Virus record (IMG/VR): IMGVR_UViG_3300018422_000112
Location: 1-50,187 of that record
Reading direction: 5' to 3' (one strand)
Length of the DNA stretch: 50,187 nucleotides
Source of the DNA: a virus
Taxonomy: Duplodnaviria; Caudoviricetes
A program made the position numbers and the translations under genes. The notes below the pieces were generated by a model that saw nothing but the letters and a program-made list of their open reading frames with translations, had not been told where the DNA came from and did no database searches. Below, piece after piece: positions 2,996 through 48,543 of the stretch (positions are counted from its first letter, which is position 1; each line of letters begins with the position of its first letter).

Positions 2996-3687
2996 GACGG
3001 GCTCCCTTGGGGGATGAGGTCGAGGCGCTTGGCGAGGCCGTCGCGGTTGTTCCAGTACATTCCGGGCAGTGAGCCGCCTGGCCCAGTCACTTCGCCAAGG
3101 CCGCGCCTTTTGAGTGCTCGCGCCGCAGCATAAAGCTGACTGGTGGTCAGCTCGACGCCGCAACCTTCTTCGCCGGTGGCATCGTCAGGACAGCTTGCGA
3201 TCAGCATTCGGCGCATGGGGTTAGAAAGGCCCATAATTCCGGCCTCTTTCTTTTTCCTTCTGGCGCGCCGAGTAGATTCCAGCGCGCAGGCTCGGCACCG
3301 CTGCCTTCTCTTCCCATCCGGGAAGACGACCCGAAGAGTGTTTGCTTCATTGAAGGGGTGGCCGTTCTTACAATGGGTGGGCTCTCGATTGTTGAGCCGC
3401 CCCTTGGAGAGAGCGTCCTGGATGTTCTCCAGTTGCGTCCCCCACCACAGATGCGCGGGGTTCACGCAAGGCGGATTATCGCAGGAATGCAGAGCAAAAT
3501 GAGCCTCGGTGGGCCTGCTGCGCCCGTCCGTCTCCAGGGAGATGTGAGTGGCCCTGCGGAGGGTGCCTTTGTGGTGAAAGGCGCCGTAACCTTTCCCCTG
3601 TGTCTGGCCCCGCCAAGGCCAGCACTCGTCCGGCTCTTGCCTATCGATCTTGCTCCAGAAGAGAGCGGCGGTCTGCTCGTCAATCAT
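2992..3687 (-). CDS. HNH endonuclease with Zn-finger, fused to a C-terminal wHTH-like domain
   Basis: ECWPWRG, LHSCDNPPCVNPAHL...EN, THCKNGH...CRAC; GGAGG RBS before ATG 3687. Confidence 0.85.
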   Translation of the reverse strand: MIDEQTAALFWSKIDRQEPDECWPWRGQTQGKGYGAFHHKGTLRRATHISLETDGRSRPTEAHFALHSCDNPPCVNPAHLWWGTQLENIQDALSKGRLNNREPTHCKNGHPFNEANTLRVVFPDGKRRQRCRACALESTRRARRKKKEAGIMGLSNPMRRMLIASCPDDATGEEGCGVELTTSQLYAAARALKRRGLGEVTGPGGSLPGMYWNNRDGLAKRLDLIPQGSPS

Positions 3688-3735
3688 CCCGCACCTCCCC
3701 CGGCATGGATGGTGGCCGGGCGCTCTTGTCATCAC

Positions 3736-4929
3736 TCACGGCCATTTCCGGCACTCCTTGCATTGATCGCCGTCGTGCATGTTGCTGAATTCGGTTGCGG
3801 GTTTGGTCTCGCCACAGAGACAGCACAGCCTGGTGGGCGGCATGGATACTGGGTCAGCCAGACTCGCGAGGCTCGCCGCCTCTTGCAGCAGCGCCACATA
3901 GCGAGGCTCGATCCCGTCGTAACTGTCGGCGGAAATGCCATCGTGAGCTTGTACGAACAGCGCCAGCGCGCGGCGGTGCATGGATACTGGGTCAGGTGAG
4001 GGTGTAATATCAGCCAAGCCGCTCAGAACGATGCTATCGGACTGACCCTGAAGGTAGGCGCGCTGGATGGCGCGGAGGGCTATGTCTCTTCCTTCGGGCG
4101 CTGGGAGAAAATTCATCCTCCCGTCTCGCATGCACTGAGCGGTATTCGGCTGCCCAGCCGCCTCATATTCAGCCGCCAGCAACTCCCGCGCCCGCTGCTC
4201 GACATCTCCCGCCGGACTTATTTGCATATCGTGCAAACAAGTGGCTGCAGGCATGGTGGGCGATGGGGAAAGGGCGGCATCGATTTCCGCAAGAAGCGTG
4301 CGGCATGTCGGAGCGACAGTTTGGTTCTCGATCGCGGGCTCCATCTCGGCCAACGTGATAGGAATCTCGACGTAGCGCCGAGCTCTTTTGAGAAGCGCCC
4401 GCAGCCCCGCTTCCCCGGCACCTTCGGATGCGGGCCGGAAGTGAACGATCCCGGCTTCGCGACGGTGCTCGATAGCCTCCATCAGAGTAGCGAGCCGGAC
4501 GCCAGCGCGAATTTCCATCGCGGGCGGTAGCCTTACATCGCACGGGAGGACGGCACCTTCGGACGATCGAACCCGCAAGCTTTCGTTGCCGGTTGGGGTG
4601 GATTCGGATGGCTTGGGAAGGGCGGCGTCGTAGCGCGTGATAAAGGCTTCCGCAGCCTCGCAGGCGTCCAACAATTCATCGTCAAATCCGGCTCTCCCGC
4701 CGCTCGTATAACCCCTGTAAGTGAGCCGCCTCAGAAGCCTGACCGCCTCCCTCGCGTCCCCTCCGGATAGGGGAGGGCGGGTGTTCCAACGGCCGATAGG
4801 GTCGTCTTCGCCTGGCATTGTCGCCCAACAAGTGAGGCAGCTTATCGACTCGATGCGCCATTTGTAACCGGTGATTATGCTCGCCTTGCCACCGCAAAAC
4901 GGACAGGGTTTCAGCTTATCGTCGCTCAC
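3736..4929 (-). CDS. Lar-family restriction alleviation domain fused to a mosaic C-terminus
   Basis: LKPCPFCGG...CLTC...WNTR N-terminal signature; C-terminal CCLC...CKEC. Confidence 0.7.
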   Translation of the reverse strand: MSDDKLKPCPFCGGKASIITGYKWRIESISCLTCWATMPGEDDPIGRWNTRPPLSGGDAREAVRLLRRLTYRGYTSGGRAGFDDELLDACEAAEAFITRYDAALPKPSESTPTGNESLRVRSSEGAVLPCDVRLPPAMEIRAGVRLATLMEAIEHRREAGIVHFRPASEGAGEAGLRALLKRARRYVEIPITLAEMEPAIENQTVAPTCRTLLAEIDAALSPSPTMPAATCLHDMQISPAGDVEQRARELLAAEYEAAGQPNTAQCMRDGRMNFLPAPEGRDIALRAIQRAYLQGQSDSIVLSGLADITPSPDPVSMHRRALALFVQAHDGISADSYDGIEPRYVALLQEAASLASLADPVSMPPTRLCCLCGETKPATEFSNMHDGDQCKECRKWP

Positions 4930-5675
4930 TTGGAGGAGTCCTTGGGTGAGGAATAGGTAGTTTCGGCGATGTCCTTCGGACCCGCGCTCTCATGCTCCGC
5001 ACCGAGCCGCTCTGCGGCGTCTCGGCCCTGCGGGTTTCGATCGCTATCGCGCGAGGCGATCAGCGCTGCACGGGCTATCGTTACGGCCTTGGACTCTGGC
5101 GCGAAGCTGTGATGCTCGGTGTCGATTATCTCGCCATGGGCGCCCATCAGCGCCGCGACCTTGGCCCCCAGCTCAACCTCTCTCTCTCGAAGTGCGCGCA
5201 GGTCTGCGTAGAGGTCCGGCAGTTCGGCCGAGGCCATGATCTGATCCCATTTGAAGGCATCAAGGGATTCGACCACTTCCCGGAAGTCGTCCGCATCGTT
5301 CGTGCTGCCGAAATAGGAGCGGTCGCCTTCGTCCTCGATCTTGTCGCGCACGTTGATCAGCGCGTCTCGCACGCGGATGAGTAAGCGGCTCTGATAGGCG
5401 CTGTCCGCCCGCAGCTTCACAATCTCGCGCGCGGAAGTCTCGGCGAAGTAGTTGCTGAAGAAGTTCACCGCCATCCCGGCTTCGCGGTGCCAAGGCCGAT
5501 ACGCGCTAGGCGGCGCATCGTCGCGCAGGCCAACGGCAATTGCGAGGACTCGCGCCAGCGCTTGTGTCAGTCGTTCCATGCGCGAGGGATCGAAGCCCGT
5601 AGGGCCGAGACCTTCTTGGGGCTCGGCTTGCGAGAGCCCGGTCGGCTTGCCGACGCGCCCTGAATCAGTCGTCAT
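4926..5675 (-). CDS. Hypothetical cassette protein whose N- and C-termini are encoded by elements E2 and E1
   Basis: Termini nearly identical to those of 10343..10741; unrelated middle. Confidence 0.7.
   Translation of the reverse strand: MTTDSGRVGKPTGLSQAEPQEGLGPTGFDPSRMERLTQALARVLAIAVGLRDDAPPSAYRPWHREAGMAVNFFSNYFAETSAREIVKLRADSAYQSRLLIRVRDALINVRDKIEDEGDRSYFGSTNDADDFREVVESLDAFKWDQIMASAELPDLYADLRALREREVELGAKVAALMGAHGEIIDTEHHSFAPESKAVTIARAALIASRDSDRNPQGRDAAERLGAEHESAGPKDIAETTYSSPKDSSK
4965..5050 (+). repeat. Structured element E1
   Basis: 84/86 identical to E3; closing stem GCGAT/ATCGC. Confidence 0.95.
5580..5671 (-). repeat. Structured element E2
   Basis: 90/92 identical to E4; closing stem GCGCG/CGCGC. 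Confidence 0.95.
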
Positions 5676-5884
5676 CCCACTTCTCCATTTCTCCGCCGCG
5701 CCTCATCCATCAGCTCGGACCTTCGGCGTGTTTCAGCTTGGGCGAGGGCCGCGAGTGCGCGCTCACTTTCCGCGCGGCGGGCTTCATCTACCTCGCGCGG
5801 GGTTCTGCCAGGAATCAAGCCCAGCTTCTGAGCAGCATAGACGACTGCTTGCGCCAGTGGGGAAAGGGGCTCAGGAATTGGCAT
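5672..5884 (-). CDS. Hypothetical phage protein
   Basis: ATGA-coupled ORF in the early-left operon. Confidence 0.55.
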   Translation of the reverse strand: MPIPEPLSPLAQAVVYAAQKLGLIPGRTPREVDEARRAESERALAALAQAETRRRSELMDEARRRNGEVG

Positions 5885-5896
5885 GTTTCTATCCTC

Positions 5897-6232
5897 TCAT
5901 CTCAGGTTCATCTTCGCCCGCTCGGTTGCGTTGACCGTGCGCCACGCCTCGAACCTCAGGCGCTTGCCCTCGGCCTTTGCGTCGGTTCTCCGGTAGTCGT
6001 AGTTCGCCAGTTCCCACTCGGCGGCGGCGGCTTTGTACGTCTCGTCGGCGCGGGCGAAATGCTCGGCCTCGCCGATCCCCTTGCCGGCGCCGCGGTGCTT
6101 GACGACCATGGCCGCGAGGACCTGTTTGCGGCGTTCGTCCAGGGCCTCGACCTGGGCGCGCGCCTCTGCGGCGGCCTCCATCGCCTCCTCGAGCCGATCG
6201 AGCGCCATATCCAGATCTTGCTCGTTACGCAT
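5897..6232 (-). CDS. Coiled-coil protein in the recombination module (UvsY-like position and composition)
   Basis: All-helical, next to ERF/SSB/nuclease genes. Confidence 0.5.
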   Translation of the reverse strand: MRNEQDLDMALDRLEEAMEAAAEARAQVEALDERRKQVLAAMVVKHRGAGKGIGEAEHFARADETYKAAAAEWELANYDYRRTDAKAEGKRLRFEAWRTVNATERAKMNLR

Positions 6233-6605
6233 GATCGAGCTCCCACTTTCTGCCCATGGGCGTGTTGGTCAGCCATTCGAGCCAATAGGCGGTGACGACA
6301 TCGCGGCCGTCGAACTCGTACTTCCGCTGGAACTCCGGCCAGCCCAGTACGTCCGTTTGCTCTTCATGGGCGCCGTCGCACATCGGCATGGACGCGGAAT
6401 CGCTAGCCTTGGTCGACATGCCCTTGTCGCCCCACGGATCGAAGTGGCAGGCGCGGACCTTGCCCCGGCAGACGTGCTTTGGGTCCTGCTGAATGATGAA
6501 GCACGACCGCCCGCGCAGCCATTTCAGGAAAGGCTCACACCGTTTCCATTCATCGGCTCGATGCGAATTCTGCACCCGAGGTTCAAAGGCGGACCTGGCC
6601 AGCAT
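6225..6605 (-). CDS. DUF968-like Zn/HNH-type nuclease
   Basis: FLKWLRGRSC...C...ACH...GMSTKASD...MPMCDGAH pattern. Confidence 0.6.
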   Translation of the reverse strand: MLARSAFEPRVQNSHRADEWKRCEPFLKWLRGRSCFIIQQDPKHVCRGKVRACHFDPWGDKGMSTKASDSASMPMCDGAHEEQTDVLGWPEFQRKYEFDGRDVVTAYWLEWLTNTPMGRKWELDHA

Positions 6606-6859
6606 TAGAAGCCGGGAACGTAGTCGTCATCGCCAGCGGCGGGCTGCCGGCTTTGTTGCCGTCGTTCGCCGCCTTGGCTGCTGTTCTCGCGCGGCTCGCG
6701 AAGATGGATGATGTACTGCCCGTCCTTGCTGGCCGGCATGGCGTCGAGCTTAACCATAAAGCCCGCCCCCTCGCGGTTAGCGAAGGCCACGCCGATGCGC
6801 GTCCAGTAGCTCTTGCCGTCGCTCTCGCGGACGGTCAGCGCGTCAAGCCGATTGCTCAT
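6605..6859 (-). CDS. Small single-stranded DNA-binding protein
   Basis: YWTRIGVAF beta-rich domain with acidic DDDYVPGF tail; downstream of ERF. Confidence 0.65.
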   Translation of the reverse strand: MSNRLDALTVRESDGKSYWTRIGVAFANREGAGFMVKLDAMPASKDGQYIIHLREPRENSSQGGERRQQSRQPAAGDDDYVPGF

Positions 6860-7527
6860 GCGTTCTCCAATTCGGTTTTGCGGTTGAAATATTCCTTCTC
6901 GAGGAATTCGTAGGCGGTGGCGGATGCGCCTCGGATCAGCTCCAGGTCGATCTCAGCGTCATTCCAGGCGAGGCCGAGCGAAGCGATGTCGCCGGACTCC
7001 CTGATCTTCTTGCGGATGCTGCCCGCGAGCTTTTGCAGGTCAGTCTGCTGCTCGCCCTTGGACGCGATCTCGATCTTCTCCTTGTCGGGATCGTCCTTGT
7101 CGCCGGTCTTGATGAGGAAGAGCCCGCGAAAGAGCTGCTTCATCGCATAAGATTGCGAAGAGCCGGCGGCTTGCGCCCCATTGAACTGGACGCTGACGGA
7201 CTTGAATATCGGCCCGTAGGCGGCGCCGCTTTCGTGAACGAGGGTGAAGGCGAAGCGCGACGACCACACCACCATTGGCTTGCCGTCTTTCTTGGTTACC
7301 TCCTGAGTCTCGGCATCGCGCGCTTCATTCGGGATGATGAACAGTCCGGCGTCGGCGCACTGCCCGCGGACGTGCTCAATGAAATCGTCGATAGAGGCAT
7401 ATTCGTAATGGTCGAATGTGTTCTCCCGCTCCTTGGCGAGGGTGCCGAGCGCCTTCATCACCTGGACGACGGCTTTGCCGATCGCTGGCGGGAAGAGGGC
7501 GGGATCGACCTGAGTATCAGCAGCCAT
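6856..7527 (-). CDS. erf: ERF-family single-strand annealing protein
   Basis: YEYASIDD, LVHESG, AQAAGSSQSYAMKQLFRGLFLI...DDPD ERF motif. Confidence 0.88.
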   Translation of the reverse strand: MAADTQVDPALFPPAIGKAVVQVMKALGTLAKERENTFDHYEYASIDDFIEHVRGQCADAGLFIIPNEARDAETQEVTKKDGKPMVVWSSRFAFTLVHESGAAYGPIFKSVSVQFNGAQAAGSSQSYAMKQLFRGLFLIKTGDKDDPDKEKIEIASKGEQQTDLQKLAGSIRKKIRESGDIASLGLAWNDAEIDLELIRGASATAYEFLEKEYFNRKTELENA

Positions 7528-7766
7528 TGGAAATCATCCTTTGAGATGGGGTGAAGCACATTGAGGAGCCGAAAGGGGCTGACCGGAAACAGGCGCGCGC
7601 TGTCGGTTCGCGGCGCCCATTCGGCGAGCCAGCGCTGGTCCGAAAGCAGCTCCCACGTTTCCGGGTCGCGCTCCCCGTCCTCGAGCCAGACGCGGACGGG
7701 AACCCAAGGCCCGCGGGCGCGGAGACGGATCTGGAAATAGCCTTCATGCGGCTCATCGATCAGCAC
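7458..7766 (-). CDS. Hypothetical phage protein
   Basis: EGYFQIRLRARGPWVPVRVW; coupled to neighbours. Confidence 0.6.
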   Translation of the reverse strand: MLIDEPHEGYFQIRLRARGPWVPVRVWLEDGERDPETWELLSDQRWLAEWAPRTDSARLFPVSPFRLLNVLHPISKDDFQWLLILRSIPPSSRQRSAKPSSR

Positions 7767-7971
7767 CTTGCGCCTCTTGGAGTTTGGCGACCTTGGCCGC
7801 GAGCCGGTCGGACGCGTCCGCGAGCTCGGACAGCAAGCCAGGGTCGAACAGCCGAGCCGGCGCCACTTCGATGAAGGGGACGCGCTGCGCGATTTGCGTC
7901 ACGTCATCGATCAGCATTTCGCGCTTGCCGATGGCGAGAGCTATTTCGTGCGGAGAGATGACGGTGGCCAT
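7753..7971 (-). CDS. Hypothetical phage protein
   Basis: GGGGAGG RBS at the inner end of E10, then MATVISPHE. Confidence 0.55.
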   Translation of the reverse strand: MATVISPHEIALAIGKREMLIDDVTQIAQRVPFIEVAPARLFDPGLLSELADASDRLAAKVAKLQEAQGADR

Positions 7972-7983
7972 TATCGCCTCCCC

Positions 7984-8082
7984 GCGCCAGTCGGGCGAAG
8001 CGCGGAGCGACGAGACGCCCCTTGGCGGCTCGGCCCGCAGGGCGAGCACGCGGTGACGGGCGCGCAGCGGCCGGCAGGCGCC
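7984..8082 (-). repeat. Structured element E10
   Basis: GCCCTGCGGGCCGAGCC..GGCGTCTCGTCGCTCCGCGCTTCG; closing stem GCGCC/GGCGC. Confidence 0.85.
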
Positions 8083-8137
8083 AAGGAACTGTCGTCGATG
8101 CGCTCTATATCGTGTTCGAGCATGAGGGCCGAAAGGG

Positions 8138-8611
8138 TCATGGATTGTCTCCGGGCGATGCGGCTTCGCCGCCGCTCTGGCTTGCTTCGCACTCAGCCAA
8201 GCTGCGCTTGTCTTCGCCCTGCGGGAGCCTGCCGCTATCGCGAGGCGGTTTTGGGGCAATCTGGTCGCGAGTGCCGGGCGGAGCGTGATAGTGTCTCTGG
8301 AAAGCAGCAAACGTCGCCGCGTGTTCGGGCGATAACAGCGCCTGACATTCGAGCTTGCCGATTTCGGCCGCTCCGGCGCGATATGCCCCGCCGTCGTCGG
8401 CCATGGACCACCACCAGTCAGCGCGATCCAGCGCTGCCCAATAGGCATCCAGGTCGACCGGCTCGACCTCGAAGAAGCTGAATAGCTCGCGCGGCGATGC
8501 GCCATATAGTTCAGCTCTCGCGCTCGCCTCATCGGCCCAATGGCGGCGCTTGCCGTCCTCCCCCAAGACCGGGCGAAGGACCATTCTGTCCCATCTGGCG
8601 GCGGTGATCAT
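8138..8611 (-). CDS. Hypothetical protein with C-terminus encoded by E9
   Basis: ATGA-coupled ORF. Confidence 0.6.
   Translation of the reverse strand: MITAARWDRMVLRPVLGEDGKRRHWADEASARAELYGASPRELFSFFEVEPVDLDAYWAALDRADWWWSMADDGGAYRAGAAEIGKLECQALLSPEHAATFAAFQRHYHAPPGTRDQIAPKPPRDSGRLPQGEDKRSLAECEASQSGGEAASPGDNP
8154..8241 (+). repeat. Structured element E9
   Basis: GGCGAT-CGGCTTCGCCG..TGCTTCGCA..CCCTGCGGG..ATCGC. Confidence 0.85.
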
Positions 8612-8781
8612 GGTTCCCTCTGCCCAATCGCGGTCGCAGCGATGCCGCGAAGGCGCTTGATGTGCTGGACTGCCCAGTCATATTCGGTGCCGTGGAAGGT
8701 CGCTGGACAATCAGGCAGGTGAGCCTCAGCGATTTCTTGGCACGCGGCCACGGATGCCAGCATTTCGTTGACCGTGGCCAT
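8608..8781 (-). CDS. Small hypothetical protein (57 aa, not in the ORF track)
   Basis: MATVNEMLAS...; overlapping start/stop codons at both ends. Confidence 0.5.
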   Translation of the reverse strand: MATVNEMLASVAACQEIAEAHLPDCPATFHGTEYDWAVQHIKRLRGIAATAIGQREP

Positions 8782-9008
8782 CACGCGGCCTCAGGCTCGC
8801 TGGCGGCAACGGCTTCCAGCCTGACGGGCGGGTCCATGCGGCGGCGAATGCGCTTGAGCGCCCAGAGCTTGCTTTCATGCTCTCGAAGGTCGCGCTTGGC
8901 GTCTTCGGAGCGGCGGGAGTAAAAATCCACCGTGCTCTGAATGGTTGCGATATCTTCGTCGAGAGCCGCCTTGGCCTCGTCGAGGGTGGTGATCAGTTCG
9001 TCGCTCAT
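8781..9008 (-). CDS. Small coiled-coil hypothetical protein
   Basis: AGGAG RBS; coupled ORF. Confidence 0.55.
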   Translation of the reverse strand: MSDELITTLDEAKAALDEDIATIQSTVDFYSRRSEDAKRDLREHESKLWALKRIRRRMDPPVRLEAVAASEPEAA

Positions 9009-9018
9009 GGTTGCGCTC

Positions 9019-9198
9019 CTATGAAAAGAGGATCAGTGCAAAGATGAAGAGGAAGGCCAGAAGGCCGCGATAGTCGTGCAGGGCCTGCGCAATGTGACGA
9101 GCGGCTTTGCCTGAGACCGCTTGCGGGCTCAGCCCCGCAGGGGCGCCGGCACGGTTGCCGCGACAGCGGCAATGCGCCAAACTGTTGTTCCTGCTCAC
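9019..9198 (-). CDS. Small membrane peptide with N-terminus encoded by E11
   Basis: GTGA-coupled start; C-terminal LLAFLFIFALILFS. Confidence 0.45.
   Translation of the reverse strand: MSRNNSLAHCRCRGNRAGAPAGLSPQAVSGKAARHIAQALHDYRGLLAFLFIFALILFS
9087..9178 (-). repeat. Structured element E11
   Basis: CCCCTGCGGGG-CTGAGCCCGCAAGCGGTCTCAG; closing stem GCGCA/TGCGC. Confidence 0.8.
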
Positions 9199-9596
9199 TT
9201 ATCCACCCCTTCCGCATCTGACTGGTTAGGGGAGAGAGCGGCGGCAAACTCGCCAACGGCCTGAGCAGATTGGAGCGCCATCTCTTCCTGCTCGGCCCAG
9301 TAGGCATCTTCGTCGGCGCGCTGCTGAGCCTCTTGCTCCGCCTGCCGCATCCAGTATTCTTCTTCCTGCCGAGCCTCTTCACGGCGGCGTTCAGCGGCAC
9401 GTTCCATCGCCCGCTCTTCTTCAAGCCGTTCGGCCTCGCGGCGATATTCGCGCTGATAGGCGTCGTTGGCCTCGTCGCAGTCGTAGGGGTTGCGATAGTC
9501 GTAGCGACCGCCGCCGTAGCGAAGATCGAACTCGGCATCATCCCGCGCTCGGCCTCGCGCCTCCCAATCCGTTGGGCAATTCCAAAGATGGCTCAT
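9195..9596 (-). CDS. Hypothetical Glu/Arg-rich protein
   Basis: Coupled ORF in the early-left operon. Confidence 0.55.
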   Translation of the reverse strand: MSHLWNCPTDWEARGRARDDAEFDLRYGGGRYDYRNPYDCDEANDAYQREYRREAERLEEERAMERAAERRREEARQEEEYWMRQAEQEAQQRADEDAYWAEQEEMALQSAQAVGEFAAALSPNQSDAEGVDK

Positions 9597-9862
9597 TCCC
9601 CATCTCCTTCAGAGAGAGCGGCCTGGATCGCGGCGATGAAGCCAGCTTCGAACATCATCATGTCGCTGGCACGGGCAGCAGCGGCCGCGTCTTGCGCCTC
9701 GTCACCAGCTCGGATCATCGCCTCATTCGGCGCCGGGAGGGCGGTCAGGACTATCCGAACGGCGGCATCGGCATCGCGCTCCGGGTAGCCGTCCTGTTCG
9801 AACAAGTAGCCGATCGTCGACGCGAGCAGCGCTCGACCTGCTTTCTCGATCATCTCAGCCAC
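9593..9862 (-). CDS. Hypothetical phage protein
   Basis: AGGAGG RBS; P-x-EAMI-x-AG motif common in phage early ORFs. Confidence 0.6.
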   Translation of the reverse strand: MAEMIEKAGRALLASTIGYLFEQDGYPERDADAAVRIVLTALPAPNEAMIRAGDEAQDAAAAARASDMMMFEAGFIAAIQAALSEGDGE

Positions 9863-9906
9863 TGGCCGCCCTCCTGTCTTTTCTCACCCCTGTTTGGGAT
9901 TGGATA

Positions 9907-10104
9907 TCAGTCACGTTCGCCTCGCTTGATTGCCTGCATCTCGGCCCATATTTTCGGCGGCCACATGCCCTTGTTCATGGGCGGGCGGGCGCGGGTTTCG
10001 ATGCGCTTCGGCCGGTCGGTGATCGCCGACTGCGCAAAGCTCGCCACTGTCGGCTTCTCGCCATCCGCGACACGATCCAGCCAATCGTTGAAGCCGTCGG
10101 TCAT
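9907..10104 (-). CDS. Hypothetical phage protein
   Basis: ATGA-coupled ORF. Confidence 0.5.
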   Translation of the reverse strand: MTDGFNDWLDRVADGEKPTVASFAQSAITDRPKRIETRARPPMNKGMWPPKIWAEMQAIKRGERD

Positions 10105-10346
10105 GCCGCAATATCCTTGGTGACGGGCTGGAGATGGCGGAGTGCGACTTGCTCAATGCTCTGCCCGCGCATGAGCGCGAACGAGGCGTAGGCGGCGGCG
10201 ATGTTCCGAACCCAAGCGCCCTCGTCGGAAAGGTTGTCGCCCTGCTGTTTGAGGAATGCGACCTCGAGACGGGCGAACGGCATCGCTTCCTGGATGAGGG
10301 CTTCGTAGCGTGCTCGGATGTCTAGGGTGGGATCGGGGGGGGTCAC
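10101..10346 (-). CDS. Hypothetical phage protein
   Basis: GTGA-coupled ORF. Confidence 0.5.
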   Translation of the reverse strand: MTPPDPTLDIRARYEALIQEAMPFARLEVAFLKQQGDNLSDEGAWVRNIAAAYASFALMRGQSIEQVALRHLQPVTKDIAA

Positions 10347-10741
10347 TTGGACTGTCCCGATGGAGGTTGGGCGATGTCCTTCGGACCCGCGCTCTCATGC
10401 TCCGCACCGAGCCGCTCTTCGGCGTCTCGGCCCTCCGGGTTTCGATCGCTATCGCAGGGGAACTCCGGCTCCCTCATTACAAGGCGGCCCTGTAGGGCAG
10501 CGATCTCACGCGCCACGCTGGTGATGCAAAGGGCGCAGAACTCGTGCCATTCTTCGCCGATGAAGATGCAGCCGCAGCGCCCGCACTCCACACCCCCCGG
10601 CTCTCGCGCGGGCCTGTCGCCGTCTGAACATCGAACACCAACGCGCGAGGGATCGAAGCCCGCAGGGCCGAGACCTTCTTGGGTCTCGGCTTGCGAGAGC
10701 CCGGTCGGCTTGCCGACGCGCCCTGAATCAGTCGCCCTCAT
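10343..10741 (-). CDS. Cassette protein with Zn-ribbon cargo (CGRC...CALC) and termini encoded by E4 and E3
   Basis: Shares termini with 4926..5675. Confidence 0.7.
   Translation of the reverse strand: MRATDSGRVGKPTGLSQAETQEGLGPAGFDPSRVGVRCSDGDRPAREPGGVECGRCGCIFIGEEWHEFCALCITSVAREIAALQGRLVMREPEFPCDSDRNPEGRDAEERLGAEHESAGPKDIAQPPSGQSK
10370..10455 (+). repeat. Structured element E3
   Basis: 84/86 identical to E1. Confidence 0.95.
10643..10734 (-). repeat. Structured element E4
   Basis: 90/92 identical to E2. Confidence 0.95.
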
Positions 10742-11004
10742 CTCCCCTGCTCCCTCGCAAGGGCGGCCAGGATCGCGGGCAGGGCGTTCCGCATGACGAC
10801 GATCAGCCTGCGGTTGGCCTCGCGTTCCTTTCGGGACAGTTTGCGATAGCGTTCGTTCTGTTTCGGGTCGTCAGTGTCGGCGATTTTACAGTCGGCCGCC
10901 CAGACATCGTTGCCGCCGTCTATTTTCCACGGGCCTTTCGTCGCCTCGGCATTGAGAGACTCCAGCTTGGCGAGTACATCGGCTATGGATAGAGGGGTGG
11001 TCAT
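10738..11004 (-). CDS. Ead/Ea22-like early protein
   Basis: ATKGPW...ANRRLIVVMRNALPAIL pattern. Confidence 0.6.
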   Translation of the reverse strand: MTTPLSIADVLAKLESLNAEATKGPWKIDGGNDVWAADCKIADTDDPKQNERYRKLSRKEREANRRLIVVMRNALPAILAALAREQGR

Positions 11005-11309
11005 GGGTGGCCTTTCTGCATTTTGCGGATCACGCGGGCGAAGCTGGCCTGTTGCGGGTTGACGACCTGCCCGTTCATGCCCATCCAGGTTAAGCGGCCG
11101 GCCGCCCACAAATCGCCGGGCAAGTCGATGATGCCGTGCTCCAGCACGGTTTCGATCTGCTCCGGATGTGCGGCGAGATACGAGATGATCATGCCGGCCG
11201 TCTCGGCGCCGCCAACGCCGGCCTGCCAGCCAATGGCCTCGGCGATATCGGCAAGCCGTGATACGAAGTCAGCGCGAATGTCGGCCGCACTAAGGCTATC
11301 GGAGGACAT
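11001..11309 (-). CDS. Hypothetical phage protein
   Basis: Coupled ORF. Confidence 0.6.
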   Translation of the reverse strand: MSSDSLSAADIRADFVSRLADIAEAIGWQAGVGGAETAGMIISYLAAHPEQIETVLEHGIIDLPGDLWAAGRLTWMGMNGQVVNPQQASFARVIRKMQKGHP

Positions 11310-11761
11310 CAGGATTGGCCCTCCGCCTTGGCGAGGGCGGCATCGATCCGCGCGCGAAGTTTTTCCAGCACCGCTTGATCGTCGCTAGGTGTGCCCTCCT
11401 GGTCGTCGGACATGACCGCCATGTCGGCGAGGCCCTTGGCTTCTCTCAGCGCTTCGTAAAGATAAGGGGCGGCGGCGATCAGGCGGGCGAAGGCCATGCC
11501 GACAGGATCGGGAGCATTCCAGGCTTGCCCGCGCTTGGCTGTGCCCTTGAACGCGACGACACAGATTTGCCCGCCATCGTCAACGTCATCATTGGCGGAG
11601 ATCTTGCCCTTGAAAGAGACGATCCAGCCGCCGTCGTTCGTGCGATAATAGCCTTCGTGATCCGCCAGCGTTTCGCCTTTCAGCTTGGCAAACTCGTCGA
11701 CGCCTTCCATGCGTTCCAATTTCCACCGCATGTCCGCCCACGCTGTCCTGTTCTCAGTCAT
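11309..11761 (-). CDS. Hypothetical phage protein (ARLIAAAP motif family)
   Basis: ARLIAAAPYLYEAL...AALAKAEG. Confidence 0.65.
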   Translation of the reverse strand: MTENRTAWADMRWKLERMEGVDEFAKLKGETLADHEGYYRTNDGGWIVSFKGKISANDDVDDGGQICVVAFKGTAKRGQAWNAPDPVGMAFARLIAAAPYLYEALREAKGLADMAVMSDDQEGTPSDDQAVLEKLRARIDAALAKAEGQS

Positions 11762-12347
11762 GACTATTCTCCGGGGAAGGGCTGGGCGTCGCGCTGCCTT
11801 CGGCATCGCCGCTCTGGCGGTCCTGCGGACCCGAGCCCGTGCCGGTCTCGGCGCTGCGCGCGCCTGCCGCTGACGCGAGGGCAGCGTCCATATTGCCGAG
11901 CAGCTCGTCGCGGATGCCGTACTGGCCCACAATTTCGCCGGTGTAGAAATCAGGGACGTCCACGCCGCCGAGATCAAACTCACCGAGCGAGGCTATCGCA
12001 GCGCGGGCTTGGGTCAGGGCATCATAAAGACCACCGACAACCGGCCCGACAGCCTCCAGCCAATCGGCTGTAGCATCACAGGTCACGGCGATCTTGCCAG
12101 CGAACAACTCGCGATCCTGGCGATCACGGACAGCATTGGCAGCGCAGCGAAGGTTGTCGGCTTTGCGCGGAAGCTGTGCCAGCGCGCCATGCGGTACCGA
12201 CCCGGAGGGCCGAGACGCTTCTTCAGCGGCTCGGTGCGGAGCATCGGTGACGCGGTCCTGCGAAGCAGGAGGCGCCAAACCCTTCTTCGCGAGAGCCTCG
12301 ACAAGAATATCACCCAGTGTCTCGTCCGGTTGCTGAGAGCGGGACAT
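11754..12347 (-). CDS. Cassette protein with termini encoded by E6 and E5
   Basis: Coupled ORF reading through both elements. Confidence 0.6.
   Translation of the reverse strand: MSRSQQPDETLGDILVEALAKKGLAPPASQDRVTDAPHRAAEEASRPSGSVPHGALAQLPRKADNLRCAANAVRDRQDRELFAGKIAVTCDATADWLEAVGPVVGGLYDALTQARAAIASLGEFDLGGVDVPDFYTGEIVGQYGIRDELLGNMDAALASAAGARSAETGTGSGPQDRQSGDAEGSATPSPSPENSHD
11785..11876 (+). repeat. Structured element E5
   Basis: TGCCTTCGGCA, GTCCTGCGGAC, CCGAGCC..GGTCTCGG, CGCTGCGCG; closing stem GCGTC/GACGC. Confidence 0.88.
12184..12276 (-). repeat. Structured element E6
   Basis: ATGCTCCGCACCGAGCCGCT..GCGTCTCGGCCCTCCGGGT shared with E3; closing stem GCGCC/GGCGC. Confidence 0.9.
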
Positions 12348-12348
12348 G

Positions 12349-12609
12349 TCAGGCTTCCAGGTACGTGCGGACAGCGAGACCAAGCTCGGTCGGTTTCTGG
12401 ACGCAGGCGAGCTTTACGCCGCCGAAGCCGAGCATCATCGGACTGTCGGCCAGTCCCTTGCGCTCAAGAGACTGCCGAGCCCTTGTAAGCGCCGGATCGT
12501 AATTGCCGCGTCCGTCCTCGCGAAGCTGGAGCAGGGCCTTCAACTCGTTCGCGGTCAGCTTGTCGGCGATGGCTTTCACGTCGCGCTGTTCGATGGCTTC
12601 GGTCGTCAT
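12349..12609 (-). CDS. Small wHTH-like protein near the start of the leftward operon
   Basis: LTANELKALL...SLERKGLA...TELG pattern; GGAG RBS. Confidence 0.55.
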   Translation of the reverse strand: MTTEAIEQRDVKAIADKLTANELKALLQLREDGRGNYDPALTRARQSLERKGLADSPMMLGFGGVKLACVQKPTELGLAVRTYLEA

Positions 12610-12646
12610 CTCAAATCTCCGTAATCAATCCTCGACTTCATCCTCG

Positions 12647-12681
12647 CCCTGCCGCGCCGGGGGGCGAATGGCGCGGCAGGG
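12647..12681. other. 12-bp perfect GC hairpin in the pL leader (attenuator or processing site?)
   Basis: CCCTGCCGCGCC / GGCGCGGCAGGG. Confidence 0.5.
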
Positions 12682-12917
12682 TCCGGAACTCAGAAGGGGG
12701 TGGGCTCATTGTCGCGACGCGCGGCAACGCGGCGCAGGGCTTCCGCACAGTTGAGAAAGGCCAAGACCGTATCGGCTCGCGCGCCTTGGGTAGTCTAGGG
12801 AGCCTGGCCGCGGCTGAGGTAAGGGCCTCAGCCAAACCGATGGCCGAGTCCTCCAGCGCGTTGGCGATGTCGATCGGGGTTGGGGTCTGCATATCGGCCT
12901 CCTGTGTGTCAGGAGGT

Positions 12918-12966
12918 ATCACACACTGTGATTTACAATGCAATAGGGAAAATCACAAAAAGTGAT
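12918..12966 (-). promoter_or_regulatory. OL operators and leftward promoter pL
   Basis: ATCACACACTGTGAT (12918-12932) and ATCACAAAAAGTGAT (12952-12966); TTGCAT-17 bp-GATACC on the minus strand. Confidence 0.75.
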
Positions 12967-13036
12967 GTTCCGCGAATCGAGTGTCCCCGGCGGGTCTGTT
13001 GCGCGCTGAAATCTGGGCTTTAGGATCTGGGCCGGC

Positions 13037-13516
13037 CTATGCGGAGGGGCAGGCGTACCTCATCGCAATGTCCCCATAGCTGTTGGGAACCGCGTGCTCG
13101 AGCGAGTTGTCATAGCCGCTGTATCGTTGGCTTGAATGAATTGAGCCGTCTGGAAGATAGCGAGTCGTCGACAACCAGCGTAGCTCGCGCGATCGGCACA
13201 GGAACCGAATCAGATTGATTTCAAATCGCCATTGTACCCTGCGATCTCTGGAGCGGTTGATGCGCATCCACAGTTGCGGCTCGGGTGAGCGATCTCTCAG
13301 TTGCCTCAGGTAGCCCGCATATTCGAGCTCCATGACGTTGCCGCCTTCGCCGGTCGGCAATACGAACCATTCCCCAGCATGTCGCTCAATCTCCGCGTCA
13401 GTCAACGCGGCGATAGTCTCATCCGTGACCATAACGTCAACGGCGGGGGCGGGCGCCTGAGCGAGGCCAGCGACATGGGCTAAGACTAAGACGAGCGCGA
13501 TCGACGCGGCGTACAT
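13037..13516 (-). CDS. Secreted surface-adhesin-E-like protein downstream of cI
   Basis: Signal peptide; C-x-x-R...Y-x-x-DG...P-x-S-x-G...C pattern. Confidence 0.55.
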   Translation of the reverse strand: MYAASIALVLVLAHVAGLAQAPAPAVDVMVTDETIAALTDAEIERHAGEWFVLPTGEGGNVMELEYAGYLRQLRDRSPEPQLWMRINRSRDRRVQWRFEINLIRFLCRSRELRWLSTTRYLPDGSIHSSQRYSGYDNSLEHAVPNSYGDIAMRYACPSA

Positions 13517-13518
13517 GC

Positions 13519-13845
13519 CTAATCATCCGTGCCGGTGCGGACGAGCGCGCGAACAACGTCGGTGAGCTGCCTGCGCTGTCCGGCGTCAGCGTGCATCCAA
13601 ATATCGATGATGTCAGCCGGAAGCTCGTTAGGGTCGTGATCGAGCAAATGCCCTGGCGTAGTTTCCAGAGCAGGAGCTAGTTTTCGCAACCACTTAGCCG
13701 AAAGACCGCGCTCGCCACTCTCTAAGTAGGCGATCATATTCTGGTTGGTGCCGACCTTTTCGGCAAGGTCGCCTTGGGTAAGCTTTCGAAACTCGCGCCA
13801 CGCCTTCAGGTAGTTCGGGCCAGCATTTTTATCGATCGTCGACAT
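13519..13845 (-). CDS. cI: Phage repressor (XRE HTH, no S24 peptidase domain)
   Basis: LTQGDLAEKVGTNQNMIAYLESGER; divergent from the cro-like gene across shared operators. Confidence 0.85.
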   Translation of the reverse strand: MSTIDKNAGPNYLKAWREFRKLTQGDLAEKVGTNQNMIAYLESGERGLSAKWLRKLAPALETTPGHLLDHDPNELPADIIDIWMHADAGQRRQLTDVVRALVRTGTDD

Positions 13846-13854
13846 GGGCCGACT

Positions 13855-13930
13855 ATCGCACTTTGTGAACCCAGCTTCACCGCACAGCCTGTGATATTTT
13901 TCGGTTGCATCCGTCATCACAGTATGTGAT
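13855..13930 (+). promoter_or_regulatory. OR operators (3) and rightward promoter pR
   Basis: ATCGCACTTTGTGAA, CGCACAGCCTGTGAT, ATCACAGTATGTGAT; TTGCAT at 13905-13910 with the same geometry as pL. Confidence 0.75.
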
Positions 13931-13939
13931 TGAGGAAGG

Positions 13940-14188
13940 ATGGAACAGCCCACCCCGAATGCCCTTCGCGAGGCGGCCGGCATCAGCCAATCCTATGCGA
14001 GCATGATCTTGAGCGGGAACCGTATCCCGCCCAGGCCGCTAGCGATTCATATCCTCCGAAAGACCGGCTGGCGACATTCGGTTCTAGGCGGCCTGACTGA
14101 GCAGCAAATCGACTTGCTCGAACAGGTCGAGCCGTGGACGCCGCGCTCCGAACTGTCCGATGCGGGCGCCCAGGACCGCGCCGCGTGA
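13940..14188 (+). CDS. cro: Cro-like HTH regulator
   Basis: LREAAGISQSYASMILSGNRIP; divergent from cI. Confidence 0.8.
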   Translation: MEQPTPNALREAAGISQSYASMILSGNRIPPRPLAIHILRKTGWRHSVLGGLTEQQIDLLEQVEPWTPRSELSDAGAQDRAA

Positions 14189-14199
14189 CCGCCCTCCGC

Positions 14200-14433
14200 T
14201 CACCCTCCCTCGGGATCGCGCCGAAACCGAACCGGATCGCTCTGTCGGGTTTGCCAATCGACAATGGCGCGCATCGCCTTGGCCGAGCCGGCGAGCAGGA
14301 TGTGAGGCGAGCAGTATATCTCGACGATGCCCTCCGCCGTGTAGACCCGAATGCAGGCGATCCCGTCGTCGGGAATTTCGAAGTCCGCCGGCTGCTTGGT
14401 GACGATCGTTCGAATGACTTGGTTGCGCGGCAT
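14200..14433 (-). CDS. Antisense small gene 1 in the early-right operon
   Basis: GAGGAG RBS before MPRNQVIRT; globular composition. Confidence 0.5.
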   Translation of the reverse strand: MPRNQVIRTIVTKQPADFEIPDDGIACIRVYTAEGIVEIYCSPHILLAGSAKAMRAIVDWQTRQSDPVRFRRDPEGG

Positions 14434-14576
14434 ACACGTACTCCTCGCACCGAATCGGTGTCCGAAATGCAGCATATCCGGGGGCTTAGCTTACAGCAAT
14501 GGGAATGCGTGGGAACCGGCAGGTACCGCGCTCGCGCATCCATGCCCGAAGGGGGCCTGATAAGAAAGGCGGCACC

Positions 14577-14792
14577 ATGAACAAGACTGCTGAGCAGGGC
14601 GAGTTGCTCAAAGCGCTGGCGTCGGAGTTGGAGCGCATTGACCGAAATAACGCGGTTCTTCGCCGCGTCCTGCGCCTCACCGCTGAGAGGGTGTGGTCGC
14701 GCAAGCCGATAATGAAAGCAATCGCTTCTTGGTTTGGTCAAGCAGCTCTCGGGATTCCGAGTGTTCAAGTTGGAGATCAAGCCGGTGATTAA
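14577..14792 (+). CDS. Hypothetical phage protein
   Basis: AAAGG RBS; MNKTAEQGELL. Confidence 0.5.
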   Translation: MNKTAEQGELLKALASELERIDRNNAVLRRVLRLTAERVWSRKPIMKAIASWFGQAALGIPSVQVGDQAGD

Positions 14793-15755: not shown

Positions 15756-15947
15756 ATGCTCGCCGCCGTCCTCCGAGCCCTCAGTCGCTTCCGTTCGAAG
15801 CCTCTCGACTATGACCCTCATAAGATAGCCTATGGGGACTACCCTGTTTTGCCGCGCGGCTTCGCCGAACCGGCTCTCGCCCTGCGGGCCGAGCCCGAAG
15901 GCGGTCTCGTCGCTACGCGCTTCGATCCGGCGCGGGGAGAGGAGTAG
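15756..15947 (+). CDS. Small ORF whose C-terminal half is element E7
   Basis: GGGGAGG RBS; stop abuts the MTase ATG. Confidence 0.45.
   Translation: MLAAVLRALSRFRSKPLDYDPHKIAYGDYPVLPRGFAEPALALRAEPEGGLVATRFDPARGEE
15852..15935 (+). repeat. Structured element E7
   Basis: CCGGCTC/GATCCGG stem, CCCTGCGGG, CCGAGCC..GGTCTCG, CGCTACGCG. Confidence 0.88.
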
Positions 15948-16718: not shown

Positions 16719-16764
16719 CCCATGTCCATCTCCGGCCGCCCCATGACTGTGGCACCCAAGTTCC

Positions 16765-16850
16765 GGCGCATCGGCTCCGCCGACCAGGCTCTCGTCTCCG
16801 ACCACGCCCGTCTGCGCGGTCGCGGCCCTGCGGGCTTCGATCCTTTGCGC
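16765..16850 (+). repeat. Structured element E8 (inside mini-ORF 16722..16895)
   Basis: GGCCCTGCGGGCTTCGATCC shared with E4; closing stem GCGCA/TGCGC. Confidence 0.88.
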
Positions 16851-16887
16851 TGTTCGTCCGAACTTCCTCACGCTTCCGGAGATACCG

Positions 16888-18441: not shown

Positions 18442-18450
18442 CCGCGCGCT

Positions 18451-18538
18451 GCGAGAGGATCGTCGCCCGTGAGGGGCGAGACGCGCAGCGGCTCGATGAG
18501 CGAAGCGAGCAGAGCCGTGCCGCCGCAGGCGGTCTCGC
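18451..18538 (-). repeat. Structured element E12 (inside mini-ORF 18438..18578)
   Basis: CCGCCTGCGGCGG, CGCTTCGC, CGAGCC..CGTCTCG; closing stem GCGAGA/TCTCGC. Confidence 0.82.
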
Positions 18539-18574
18539 TCAACCTCTAGGTCCACACTCACATCAGAGGATAGG

Positions 18575-47752: not shown

Positions 47753-47794
47753 TCCTCATCCTCTCTTCACCCTGGGTAAGCCGTGCAGATTATG

Positions 47795-47883
47795 GGCGCA
47801 TCCGCTGCGCGGACCGCGTGCTATGGCTTCGCCACGGAGCCAGCTTCGCCGTCTCCGCCCATTCGGGTAACGCCCGCTTGCGC
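47795..47883 (+). repeat. Structured element E13
   Basis: TCCGCTGCGCGGA, TGGCTTCGCCA, CGGAGCC..GTCTCCG; closing stem GCGCA/TGCGC. Confidence 0.85.
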
Positions 47884-48174
47884 GTCGGCGCGGCCAAAGC
47901 TCTTCGCCTCCATGTAGGTGTGGACCAGCTCGCTCATGATCATGTCGTCGTCGTACTCGGGCGGCGCGTAGATATTCCAAACTCTCTCCGGCGTCCGAAA
48001 GGGATGGAGATTATAGCGAAAGCGCTGTATCTGAATCGTCTCTTCCACGACAGGCTCTTTGGAGATGCTGGTGAGCGGTGGCGTGACCGCGAGAAGATGA
48101 TATTCGTGAGCGGGCAAGTTCGAACATCGCCCCGCCCATGGCCCATCTATGAAGTAGCAGTTTTCCATCGTCAT
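47821..48174 (-). CDS. Cargo gene between E14 and E13
   Basis: AGGAG RBS at the inner edge of E14; FIDGPWAG motif. Confidence 0.6.
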   Translation of the reverse strand: MTMENCYFIDGPWAGRCSNLPAHEYHLLAVTPPLTSISKEPVVEETIQIQRFRYNLHPFRTPERVWNIYAPPEYDDDMIMSELVHTYMEAKSFGRADAQAGVTRMGGDGEAGSVAKP

Positions 48175-48182
48175 TCTCCTAT

Positions 48183-48266
48183 GCGAAATGCGATACCCAC
48201 CCGTGAGGGCGGAGACAACGAAGATTGGCTCCGTTCATGGGTAGCGCGGTGCCGAAGGCATTCGCC
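48183..48266 (-). repeat. Structured element E14
   Basis: TGCCTTCGGCA, GCGCTACCCA/TGGGTATCGC, CGGAGCC..GTCTCCG; closing stem GCGAA/TTCGC. Confidence 0.85.
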
Positions 48267-48543
48267 CGGCAACGTGGCCCGCTTGCGCTTCGAGCAACTC
48301 AGCCGCTTCGCCTAGCGTCGTCGCGCTAATGCGGTATTCTGGAGAGCGAAGCTGCGTCAAGAGTTCCAGCGGGACGGGTCTCGCTATGGAGCGCCGAGCG
48401 AGCCGTTCGACCAAGTCGCCGGCAATGGTGTATTTCGCCCAACGCTCTTTTGTGCCGAATGCCGCCGCCGAGATACGCGCCACCTCTGTTCGCAGTTGAT
48501 CGAACAGCGCCTCGGTCGATTCCAGTGAGGCCGCAGCGGCCAT
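48235..48543 (-). CDS. Hypothetical phage protein
   Basis: AGGAGG RBS. Confidence 0.55.
   Translation of the reverse strand: MAAAASLESTEALFDQLRTEVARISAAAFGTKERWAKYTIAGDLVERLARRSIARPVPLELLTQLRSPEYRISATTLGEAAELLEAQAGHVAGRMPSAPRYP

Follow-up and report, generated by a model that had tools for sequence, protein, structure and literature searches.

In integrons, promoterless cargo of unrelated function is bounded by attC, a folded, strand-specific site with a sharp boundary between cargo and site. An integron cassette carries one attC in direct orientation within a system that includes the IntI integrase and attI, and attC conserves its structure but not its sequence. Here we describe element X, a folded element of about 85 nt, inverted pairs of which bracket small accessory genes in the phage genome IMGVR_UViG_3300018422_000112. 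The window analysed is this whole virus record, 50,187 nt with 63% G+C. X, whose hairpin loops are strand-asymmetric, resembles attC as a folded element that borders unrelated cargo at a sharp boundary; however, X conserves both sequence and structure, and there are two inverted sites per cassette. No IntI-like gene was found among 49 window proteins compared with PHROGs.

The promoter-early stem-loops (PeSLs) of T4-type phages are short conserved motifs that flank small non-essential open reading frames (ORFs) in variable regions, and recombination between the motifs shuffles the genes (PMC2839356). A PeSL is intergenic and consists of a sigma-70 promoter and a terminator hairpin, and exchange between nearby copies gives mini-circles. 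X is likewise a repeated motif bounding small ORFs of a variable region, but it has no promoter- or terminator-like part, possesses a covarying multi-helix fold, forms inverted heterotypic pairs and lies inside ORFs. The X consensus, read by eye, is G+C-rich throughout and contains no hexamers resembling -35 or -10 boxes. No T-run follows the phage copies of X, and in 33 of 35 pairs of adjacent copies, one is inverted relative to the other.

The pdif sites of Acinetobacter are 28-bp XerC/XerD sites on plasmids. The modules that they delimit hold unrelated cargo and are shuffled between replicons (PMC13141974, PMC6449649). X differs from pdif in being a folded element of about 85 nt, in occurring in phages and integrative and conjugative elements (ICEs), and in having no evident Xer-like core. 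Rickettsia palindromic elements (RPEs) are hairpin-forming repeats inserted in frame and translated within host proteins (PMC10969869); they are single elements of about 150 bp that lie in unrelated genes of the chromosome and code for a conserved peptide. X is also repeated, hairpin-forming alphaproteobacterial DNA that is translated in frame. Unlike RPEs, it is paired at both gene termini, is read in several frames with no conserved peptide, and is restricted to mobile elements.

Frpo/ssi elements, which are single-stranded-DNA promoters, are structured and precede anti-restriction, ssb and other establishment genes, often with several per island (PMC11541004). STAXI is a structured motif of plasmid leading regions (PMC2864571), a repeated pseudoknot of Enterobacteriales (RF01728). 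The position of X before ardC and similar genes of bacterial mobile elements is Frpo-like; however, Frpo mimics a -35/-10 duplex, and the X consensus has no such boxes. STAXI differs from X in that an Rfam search gave no match to X. Neither Frpo nor STAXI is known to occur as inverted pairs around phage genes.

X cassettes are a new variant among cassette-bounding elements. The accessory regions of phages and plasmids show the fastest turnover of anti-defence and host-takeover genes. As a boundary element, X can be searched for with a covariance model, and its cassettes have a fixed grammar and a polarity. After the RPEs of Rickettsia, it is the second clear case of structured repeat DNA that is routinely translated as protein termini.

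Two cassettes with near-identical ends and unrelated interiors

Cassettes A and B of the window each consist of one ORF with an end region at either terminus, termed E1 and E2 in cassette A and E3 and E4 in cassette B (Table 1). The first-pass annotation had reported near-identical ends around unrelated cargo, and BLAST reproduced both of its counts. E1 and E3 are identical at 84 of 86 positions (97.7%, E = 9e-41), and E2 and E4 at 90 of 92 (97.8%, E = 2.5e-44). A repeat search of the window returned the same regions as two pairs of direct repeats, each 96% identical: 92 nt at 4959–5050 and 10364–10455, and 97 nt at 5580–5676 and 10643–10739. Identity of this extent within 50 kb is not explicable by chance. 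The two ends of one cassette are also related to each other as 32-nt inverted repeats that are 84% complementary, with a spacer of 529 nt in cassette A (5019–5050 and 5580–5611) and 187 nt in cassette B (10424–10455 and 10643–10674).

Two of the four mismatches between the cassettes are the central base of CCCTNCGGG, as noted earlier; the remaining two are one mid-loop change (CTCTGCGGC versus CTCTTCGGC) and one change in a stem. All four fall in the inner 22–43 nt of X, a placement that agrees weakly with recombination inside the inner part of the element.

The cores of ORFs A and B have no BLASTP match to each other, and neither ORF matched a Pfam or PHROG family. The helical domain ascribed to core A is present in an AlphaFold2 model, which is all-helical with a predicted local distance difference test (pLDDT) score of 70–91 over residues ~70–180. 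The Zn ribbon ascribed to core B is a sequence reading of its CxxC...CxxC pattern, for which the single-sequence model was poor (mean pLDDT 43.8). A search with ORF A returned 11 other proteins, eight of which share only the core, with its motif EDEGDRxYFGSTNDADD, and have no terminal tags. Three match ORF A in the N-terminal tag alone, with unrelated cores behind it; a related C-terminal tail is present in at least one. Therefore, the cargo families exist alone, and the ends occur with other cargo. Paralogous gene duplication is rejected, since the two cores do not match by BLASTP and homologues of core A lack the ends.

Each of ORFs A and B shares an overlapping ATGA with the preceding gene at its start and an overlapping GTGA with the following gene at its end. 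Because both ORFs overlap both neighbors in this way, translation very probably extends over the ends.

Opposite ORF B, the plus strand has an open frame that spans the entire cassette (10347–10796, 149 aa), beginning at an ATG within the inverted X with GGAGG before it. The corresponding antisense frame of cassette A comes to a stop after 47 aa, so this antisense ORF probably does not represent a gene. The leader ACTGATTCA lies just outside the 5'-side X of both cassettes (5661–5671 and 10724–10734) and contains GATTC, a GANTC site of the kind that CcrM methylates in Alphaproteobacteria; X itself has no such site.

Unitigs of a single metagenome run, the probable source metagenome of the phage, are interrupted at the repeats, yet tile the window in window order. 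The unitigs of cores A and B (4984–5651 and 10389–10714) have depths of 6.5 and 6.6, the flanks 7.8–10.7, and a 50-mer shared by the ends of the two cassettes 16.5. The lower depth of the cores could mean that part of the population has other cargo between the same ends; contig depth is a weak measure, and the loose ends listed include none at the X boundaries.

X is a conserved multi-hairpin element

E1–E4 are copies of one multi-hairpin nucleic-acid element of 83–98 nt, X, and score 70–81 bits against a single covariance model (R1). The two ends of a cassette had been described as inverted relatives over 24 nt. That relation holds, but its extent is larger, as the ends are whole copies of the structured element. 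With model R1 and filters off, cmsearch detected 14 copies in the window, 13 of them at E ≤ 5e-4 and one at E = 0.033. These copies form at least five cassettes (A, B, C, D and F) in which two convergent copies of X face each other across the cargo.

Further loci were collected with the exact 24-mer GTCTCGGCCCTNCGGGYTTCGATC, which under-samples diverged copies and other lineages. IMG/VR yielded 35 loci. One genome per prokaryote species yielded 95, almost all from Alphaproteobacteria, with hosts including Hyphomonadaceae, Terricaulis, Vitreimonas, Hyphomicrobium, Novosphingobium, Azospirillum, Mesorhizobium and Thalassospira.

The fold was derived from the aligned loci using RNAalifold and the covariance model. 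The closing stem P0 (GGCGn/nCGCC) is followed by the variable hairpin P1. An inner stem, GGG-C-TC / GA-T-CCC, closes a junction that contains a variable hairpin, a CCGAG/CTCGG hairpin with a variable tip, and a GCCC-TNC-GGGC hairpin. The inner 24–40 nt, on the cargo side, are almost invariant. In 116 aligned copies, 96.7% of the cells are paired, compared to 84.3% in shuffles and 31–44% with slid partners. Compensatory double changes occur in 17 of the 19 base pairs. Column 6/187 is occupied by CG in 49 copies, AU in 27, UA in 25 and GC in 5, and column 37/181 by GC in 73 and CG in 36. Covariation supports the fold, and the variety of pair types at single positions is hard to explain otherwise, although the alignment was fitted to the model and favours the fold. 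Since single-copy folding energies are unremarkable, the evidence for the structure is comparative, not thermodynamic.

Rfam 15 returned nothing overlapping X at E ≤ 5 in window positions 4000–17500 and no match at E ≤ 1 in 20 X loci, and ARAGORN found no tRNA or tmRNA. Readings of X as tRNA-like, as a hammerhead or other ribozyme, or as a riboswitch were dropped because no model matched. The T-loop-like GGGCTTCGATCC was rejected as a T-arm, since no such pairing exists and covariation favours another register. A UUCG tetraloop reading of CCCTTCGGG was likewise rejected, as the compensatory changes agree with the register of a triloop (column 157/170, CG 104 and GC 11). A search of the open-access literature, by motif letters and by concept, found no description of X.

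The 5–10 nt just outside the 5' end of X are often purine-rich and end in TT (GGAGGTT, GAAGGGTT), for example at window positions 10359–10368 and in three other phage loci (L012, L028 and L009). At inverted copies, this flank is read as ...IAQP(P/Q).... It is possible that X extends a few bases past the model.

Which strand folds

The hairpin loops of X are strongly strand-asymmetric, with 193 of the form C-TNC-G and none of the form C-GNA-G. When the conserved hairpin was left out, the counts were 95 and 0, compared to 7.6 and 3.8 in shuffles. On stems of at least 4 bp, 151 of 207 triloops are T..C and one is G..A, and 23 of 79 tetraloops are T..C and none is G..A. On the complementary strand, the loops are therefore of the GNA and GNNA kinds. 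GNA loops of the d(GCGAAGC) type are unusually stable in DNA. The stems of X show no wobble bias (34 GU/UG versus 22 AC/CA). When folded as RNA, the complement is better by 2.0 kcal/mol in 62 viral copies (p = 5e-8) and by 0.45 kcal/mol in 54 bacterial copies, where the difference is not significant. Together, these patterns lean towards a DNA strand, the template strand of the downstream gene, as the molecule that folds.

Cassette architecture in phages

Copies of X also occur in number in other phages; five complete related genomes contain 12, 10, 7, 4 and 2. Among 35 pairs of adjacent copies no more than 1.5 kb apart, from the window and the viral loci, 24 are convergent, nine divergent and two tandem; the orientations alternate. 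The cassette cores are 152–841 nt long. In 17 of 19 cassettes, the ends have the same polarity: the copy at the 5' end of the gene has a junction stem of the form xGG/CCx (type I), and that at the 3' end, which is inverted, one of the form xCG/CGx (type II).

The cargo differs from cassette to cassette. Among 20 cassette cores, none of the 190 pairs has a BLASTP match at E ≤ 0.01, and the only Pfam families above threshold in the 20 cassette ORFs are HNH nuclease and DUF1643. The clearest case outside the window is a pair of cassettes from different virus records (L006 and L016), which are 94–96% identical from the start codon to the inner end of X, and again from the inner end of the inverted X to about the stop codon. 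The two cores (306 and 540 nt) are unrelated, and so is the neighboring DNA. Two further pairs (L018 and L028, L012 and L025) similarly have similar ends and other cargo, and two cassettes of one genome (L004 and L005) share an end with 98.8% identity. In 52 of 53 pairs of ends with at least 88% identity, similarity is lost within -7 to +6 nt of the inner boundary of X, and on the outer side it extends for 0–63 nt. Homologous ends elsewhere thus bracket different cargo.

The first-pass annotation had regarded the shared N- and C-terminal peptides as tags of the proteins. Genes in the loci were called by a simple script using G+C at third codon positions, and frames were anchored on the 24-mer, which left three cassettes per side not anchorable. 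The 5'-side X is read in frames 1, 0 and 2 in 10, six and one cassettes, and the 3'-side X in two frames, in 11 and six cassettes. Because X is read in several frames, the resulting peptides differ completely: GLGPxGFDPSR, VSALRASIPSA and ASRPSGSVPH on the 5' side, and DSDxxPxGRDA and AQAIEARRAET on the 3' side. In the AlphaFold2 model of ORF A, the tag regions come out as unstructured, with pLDDT ~44–58 and no confident fold. X is conserved at the nucleic-acid level, and the tags are by-products.

No target-site duplications flank 24 cassettes. Empty sites, which had been proposed as a check, were absent from two IMG/VR scans that used exact arm patterns and core lengths up to ~52 nt; one candidate empty shell (L131) turned out to be an unrelated palindrome. 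Selected long-range pairing between X and its inverted partner was rejected, as partner ends are no more alike than non-partners (similarity 0.58 versus 0.60, p = 0.89, against an imperfect null that mixes subtypes).

X in bacterial mobile elements

X also stands as a cis-element by itself in mobile elements of Alphaproteobacteria, and is common to temperate phages and to ICE-like or mobilisable conjugative elements across several families. Five bacterial genomes, in each of which 150 candidates were scored, hold 1–3 copies. For 94 genome loci, we took the first same-strand ORF of at least 80 aa that starts no more than 700 nt downstream of X, which gave 55 ORFs. Twelve of these encode ArdC, two of them from one inverted duplication. 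The others include three resolvases, two DUF736, two DUF6876, one ParB_N, one S26 peptidase and one TraI-like helicase, and 27 ORFs have no Pfam family. In conjugative elements, the X upstream of ardC and neighboring establishment genes is a single copy. X may represent a new class of folded-DNA cis-element located ahead of anti-restriction genes.

One locus, extended to 18 kb, is ICE-like, with DUF736, ParB_N, DUF2958, ArdC, X, a helix-turn-helix gene, DUF2285 and LuxI/LuxR-type genes; this order is presumably that of Mesorhizobium symbiosis islands. In a second locus extended to 18 kb, a MobA/VirD2 relaxase adjoins ardC. By eye, several ardC loci have one or two further hairpins and a T-run after X in the sense direction. 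In one contig of a metagenome-assembled genome, near-identical copies of X (L080 and L081) face each other across two inverted N-terminal fragments of ArdC, a large inverted duplication that may be an assembly artefact.

Two conserved flanks were seen. In Hyphomonadaceae loci (L056, L099, L106, L118, L127), the motif ...CAAGATTGA... lies 5–10 nt upstream of X in several type-II copies and could be part of a promoter or the end of a conserved gene. Hyphomicrobium-type loci (L102, L051, L112, L078, L130) have a conserved stretch, ...AAGGGGCGCTGCCCCTCGCGCGCGCAAGGCATCCAAACG..., after X; in these loci X lies ~500–600 nt upstream of a serine resolvase gene or adjoins a MerR gene.

Models for cargo replacement

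We tentatively favour, with confidence just short of even, a model in which X pairs surround small accessory genes and the cargo is replaced by short-homology recombination within X. Inverted pairs bracket the gene, with subtype one at its 5' end in gene direction and subtype two inverted at its 3' end. The inner 24–40 nt of X would serve as portable homology arms, and annealing-type recombination between cassettes in phages or prophages that reside together, plausibly performed by the phage's own Erf-like annealing protein, would replace the cargo. The recipient's ends would stay intact. Genes of the tightly packed operon read through X and gain incidental, frame-dependent terminal peptides.

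The comparative pattern fits such replacement inside the inner part of X: the ends are near-identical, the cargo is unrelated, the inner boundary is sharp, the inner part is invariant, the polarity is fixed, and an Erf gene is present. The Erf-like gene and a small gene for a protein resembling SSB, the protein that binds single-stranded DNA, sit between cassettes A and B. We infer exchange within X, the part of Erf and the role of the folded X from what was observed, namely the element, its fold, its copies, the architecture, the polarity, the unrelated cargo and the reading frames. The earlier proposal that cargo is exchanged between fixed ends holds as far as unrelated cargo in the same ends is concerned, in the window and in other phages; the exchange itself is read from comparison, and no event was observed.

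Several points weigh against this model. Recombination events, hybrid ends and circles were not observed, nor were empty sites, and the metagenome evidence, which comprises the contigs and unitigs of the one run, contains no joints or variants. Homology arms need neither a conserved fold nor strand-specific loops nor two subtypes, and these features are left unexplained; they would be in keeping with a dedicated structure-specific recombinase as well. Strand annealing should be impeded by stable hairpins, and the folding energies of single copies are unexceptional (DNA z-scores of -0.2 to -2.4). The differences between the ends of L006 and L016 are spread along X and not limited to its inner part, and the two ends of one cassette resemble each other no more than ends that are not partners. 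Finally, gene conversion within one genome could give the near-identity of the ends of cassettes A and B without any movement of cargo. Because fold, loop polarity and subtypes are unexplained by short-homology replacement, two rival explanations, an expression role and a structure-specific recombinase, stay alive.

The first of these, which we consider unlikely, holds that X is a purely cis-acting expression element of early and anti-defence genes, acting as folded single-stranded DNA (Frpo/ssi-like or sso-like) or as RNA. In that case, gene conversion or recent copying would have produced the near-identical ends of cassettes A and B, and the variety of cargo would be ordinary phage mosaicism. 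Such a role agrees with the position of X upstream of, and co-directional with, ArdC in 12 of 55 cases and before DUF736, ParB_N, S26 and TraI-like genes, with the ICE-like context of these loci, and with the window copies that immediately precede a DNA methyltransferase gene and the gene starting near 7971. The loop polarity places the GNA/GNNA loops on the template strand of the downstream gene, and the lack of wobble bias fits DNA better than RNA. Frpo elements recur in plasmid anti-defence islands (PMC11541004). On the other hand, the phage is double-stranded, with no obvious single-stranded entry stage, and X has no stretch resembling -35 and -10 boxes. Phage copies of X lie inside ORFs and are translated, which would disturb an RNA leader, and the ardC leaders of the subset read by eye have a sense hairpin and T-run just after X. 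The inverted 3'-end copies, the heterotypic polarity and the sharp cargo boundaries are left unexplained by an expression role.

It is also possible, though doubtful, that X is an undescribed folded single-stranded DNA element of alphaproteobacterial mobile elements, with the GNA/GNNA-looped template strand as its working strand. Before ardC and neighboring genes of conjugative elements, it would be Frpo- or sso-like and drive early expression or priming, and phages would have co-opted its two heterospecific subtypes as the ends of exchangeable cassettes. If so, it would be a phage counterpart of the integron for anti-defence genes, with the cargo fused in frame to the sites.

The second surviving rival, which we rate as slightly less likely still, is that X is the folded site of a dedicated structure-specific recombinase, with heterospecific inverted subtypes between which cargo is swapped by double site-specific exchange. 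This scheme can be likened to integron attC sites, Acinetobacter pdif modules and laboratory cassette exchange. It would account for a conserved, covarying fold, for the strand asymmetry of the loops (193 versus 0), for heterotypic ends with fixed polarity in 17 of 19 cassettes, for the very sharp inner boundary in 52 of 53 pairs, and for the absence of target-site duplications in 24 cassettes; moreover, serine resolvases adjoin some of the bacterial copies (3 of 55 downstream genes). However, no such recombinase is visible alongside X in the window, where PHROGs identify only the tyrosine integrase at 1–1200, and the two IMG/VR scans contain no excised or empty forms. Integron cassettes have one site each in direct orientation, and the centre of X is not AT-rich, unlike dif-like sites. 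Single copies before ardC have no partner site, and the 1–3 copies in bacterial genomes, from 150 candidates scored in each, are likewise at odds with this scheme.

That the cassettes are non-autonomous transposons, akin to miniature inverted-repeat transposable elements or mobile insertion cassettes, with X as structured terminal inverted repeats mobilised in trans and carrying passenger genes, appears improbable. Inverted ends with a variable interior would be expected of such elements, near-identical ends do occur at two places of one genome (cassettes A and B in the window, 98.8% identity between L004 and L005), and the ends of L006 and L016 form a shell among unrelated neighbors. In-frame insertion of repeats is known in Rickettsia (PMC10969869). 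Against this, none of 24 cassettes has a target-site duplication, PHROGs show no transposase nearby in the window, and no cargo-less element was present in the two IMG/VR scans. Single copies before ardC have a fixed orientation, partner ends are of different subtypes and no more alike than non-partners, and the compensatory changes imply long-term selection on the fold.

A function of the shared terminal peptides as protein tags, for example targeting or degradation signals, is very improbable: although the ORFs read through the ends with translational coupling, the shared parts of L006 and L016 run exactly from start codon to stop codon minus the cargo, and three database proteins have the N-terminal peptide on other cores, the same DNA gives unrelated peptides in three frames (5') and two (3'), X also lies between and upstream of genes, conservation tracks base pairing, and the tag regions of ORF A have no confident predicted fold.

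X could be used as a flag for new anti-defence cargo, and it offers a testable system for short-homology or structure-specific cassette exchange.

Copies of X in the window and gene setting

The 14 copies of X in the window, the two ORFs of cassettes A and B and the Erf-like gene are listed in Table 1.

Table 1 Element X and associated genes in the 50,187-nt window
Feature	Position	Strand	Score	Remarks
X type II (E1), junction stem GCG/CGC	4964..5052	+	70.6 bits, E = 9.6e-17	Inverted, 3' end of ORF A
X type I (E2), junction stem GGG/CCC	5578..5660	-	80.6 bits, E = 1.7e-19	5' end of ORF A
ORF A, 249 aa	4926..5675	-		Reads through both X copies; helical core with EDEGDRxYFGSTNDADD motif
Erf-like single-strand annealing protein	6856..7527	-	PHROG 155, E = 2.5e-21	Candidate enzyme for short-homology recombination
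X, intergenic	7982..8067	-	30.3 bits	In operon direction; ends ~11 nt before next start codon
X closing cassette D	8153..8243	+	17.8 bits, E = 0.033	Inverted; C-terminus of ORF 8138–8611; weakest copy counted
X opening cassette D	9085..9179	-	24.4 bits, E = 5.1e-04	Multi-gene cargo, 841 nt
X type II (E3)	10369..10457	+	74.7 bits	Inverted, 3' end of ORF B
X type I (E4)	10641..10723	-	77.5 bits	5' end of ORF B
ORF B, 132 aa	10343..10741	-		CxxC...CxxC core between two X copies
X, 3' side of cassette C	11784..11878	+	24.6 bits, E = 4.3e-04	Inverted
X, 5' side of cassette C	12182..12277	-	34.6 bits, E = 7.5e-07	ORF 11754–12383/12347 (-); third frame
X upstream of DNA methyltransferase gene	15850..15937	+	43.8 bits	Directly upstream of 15948–16718 (PHROG match)
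X between DNA methyltransferase genes	16764..16852	+	64.8 bits	Just downstream of 15948–16718, upstream of second gene, 17186–18211 (PHROG match)
X, single	18449..18540	-	29.2 bits	Inside small minus-strand ORF
X, 3' side of cassette F	47794..47885	+	34.6 bits	Inverted; near right end of window
X, 5' side of cassette F	48181..48267	-	36.3 bits	ORF 47821–48174

Two small plus-strand ORFs, 15756–15947 (63 aa) and 16722–16895 (57 aa), flank the first methyltransferase gene and consist largely of X sequence. They may not be genes, in which case X would be intergenic there, 11 nt before the methyltransferase start.

PHROG matches from the scan of 49 window proteins indicate a temperate tailed phage. 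They include the integrase at 1–1200, the two DNA methyltransferases, RusA, terminase and structural genes. A leftward early operon of small overlapping genes extends from ~3,000 to 12,600 and encodes two HNH endonucleases, a Lar-like restriction-alleviation protein, the Erf-like annealing protein and the small SSB-like protein. Window positions 4500–11200 had no blastn match among INPHARED phages, and no relatives of the Lar-like neighbor gene were found in IMG/VR.

Directly downstream of the Erf-like gene, the minus strand at 6605–6859 encodes an 84-aa protein of PHROG 18187 (function unknown). It ends in DDDYVPGF, which resembles the acidic C-terminal tip of SSB proteins.

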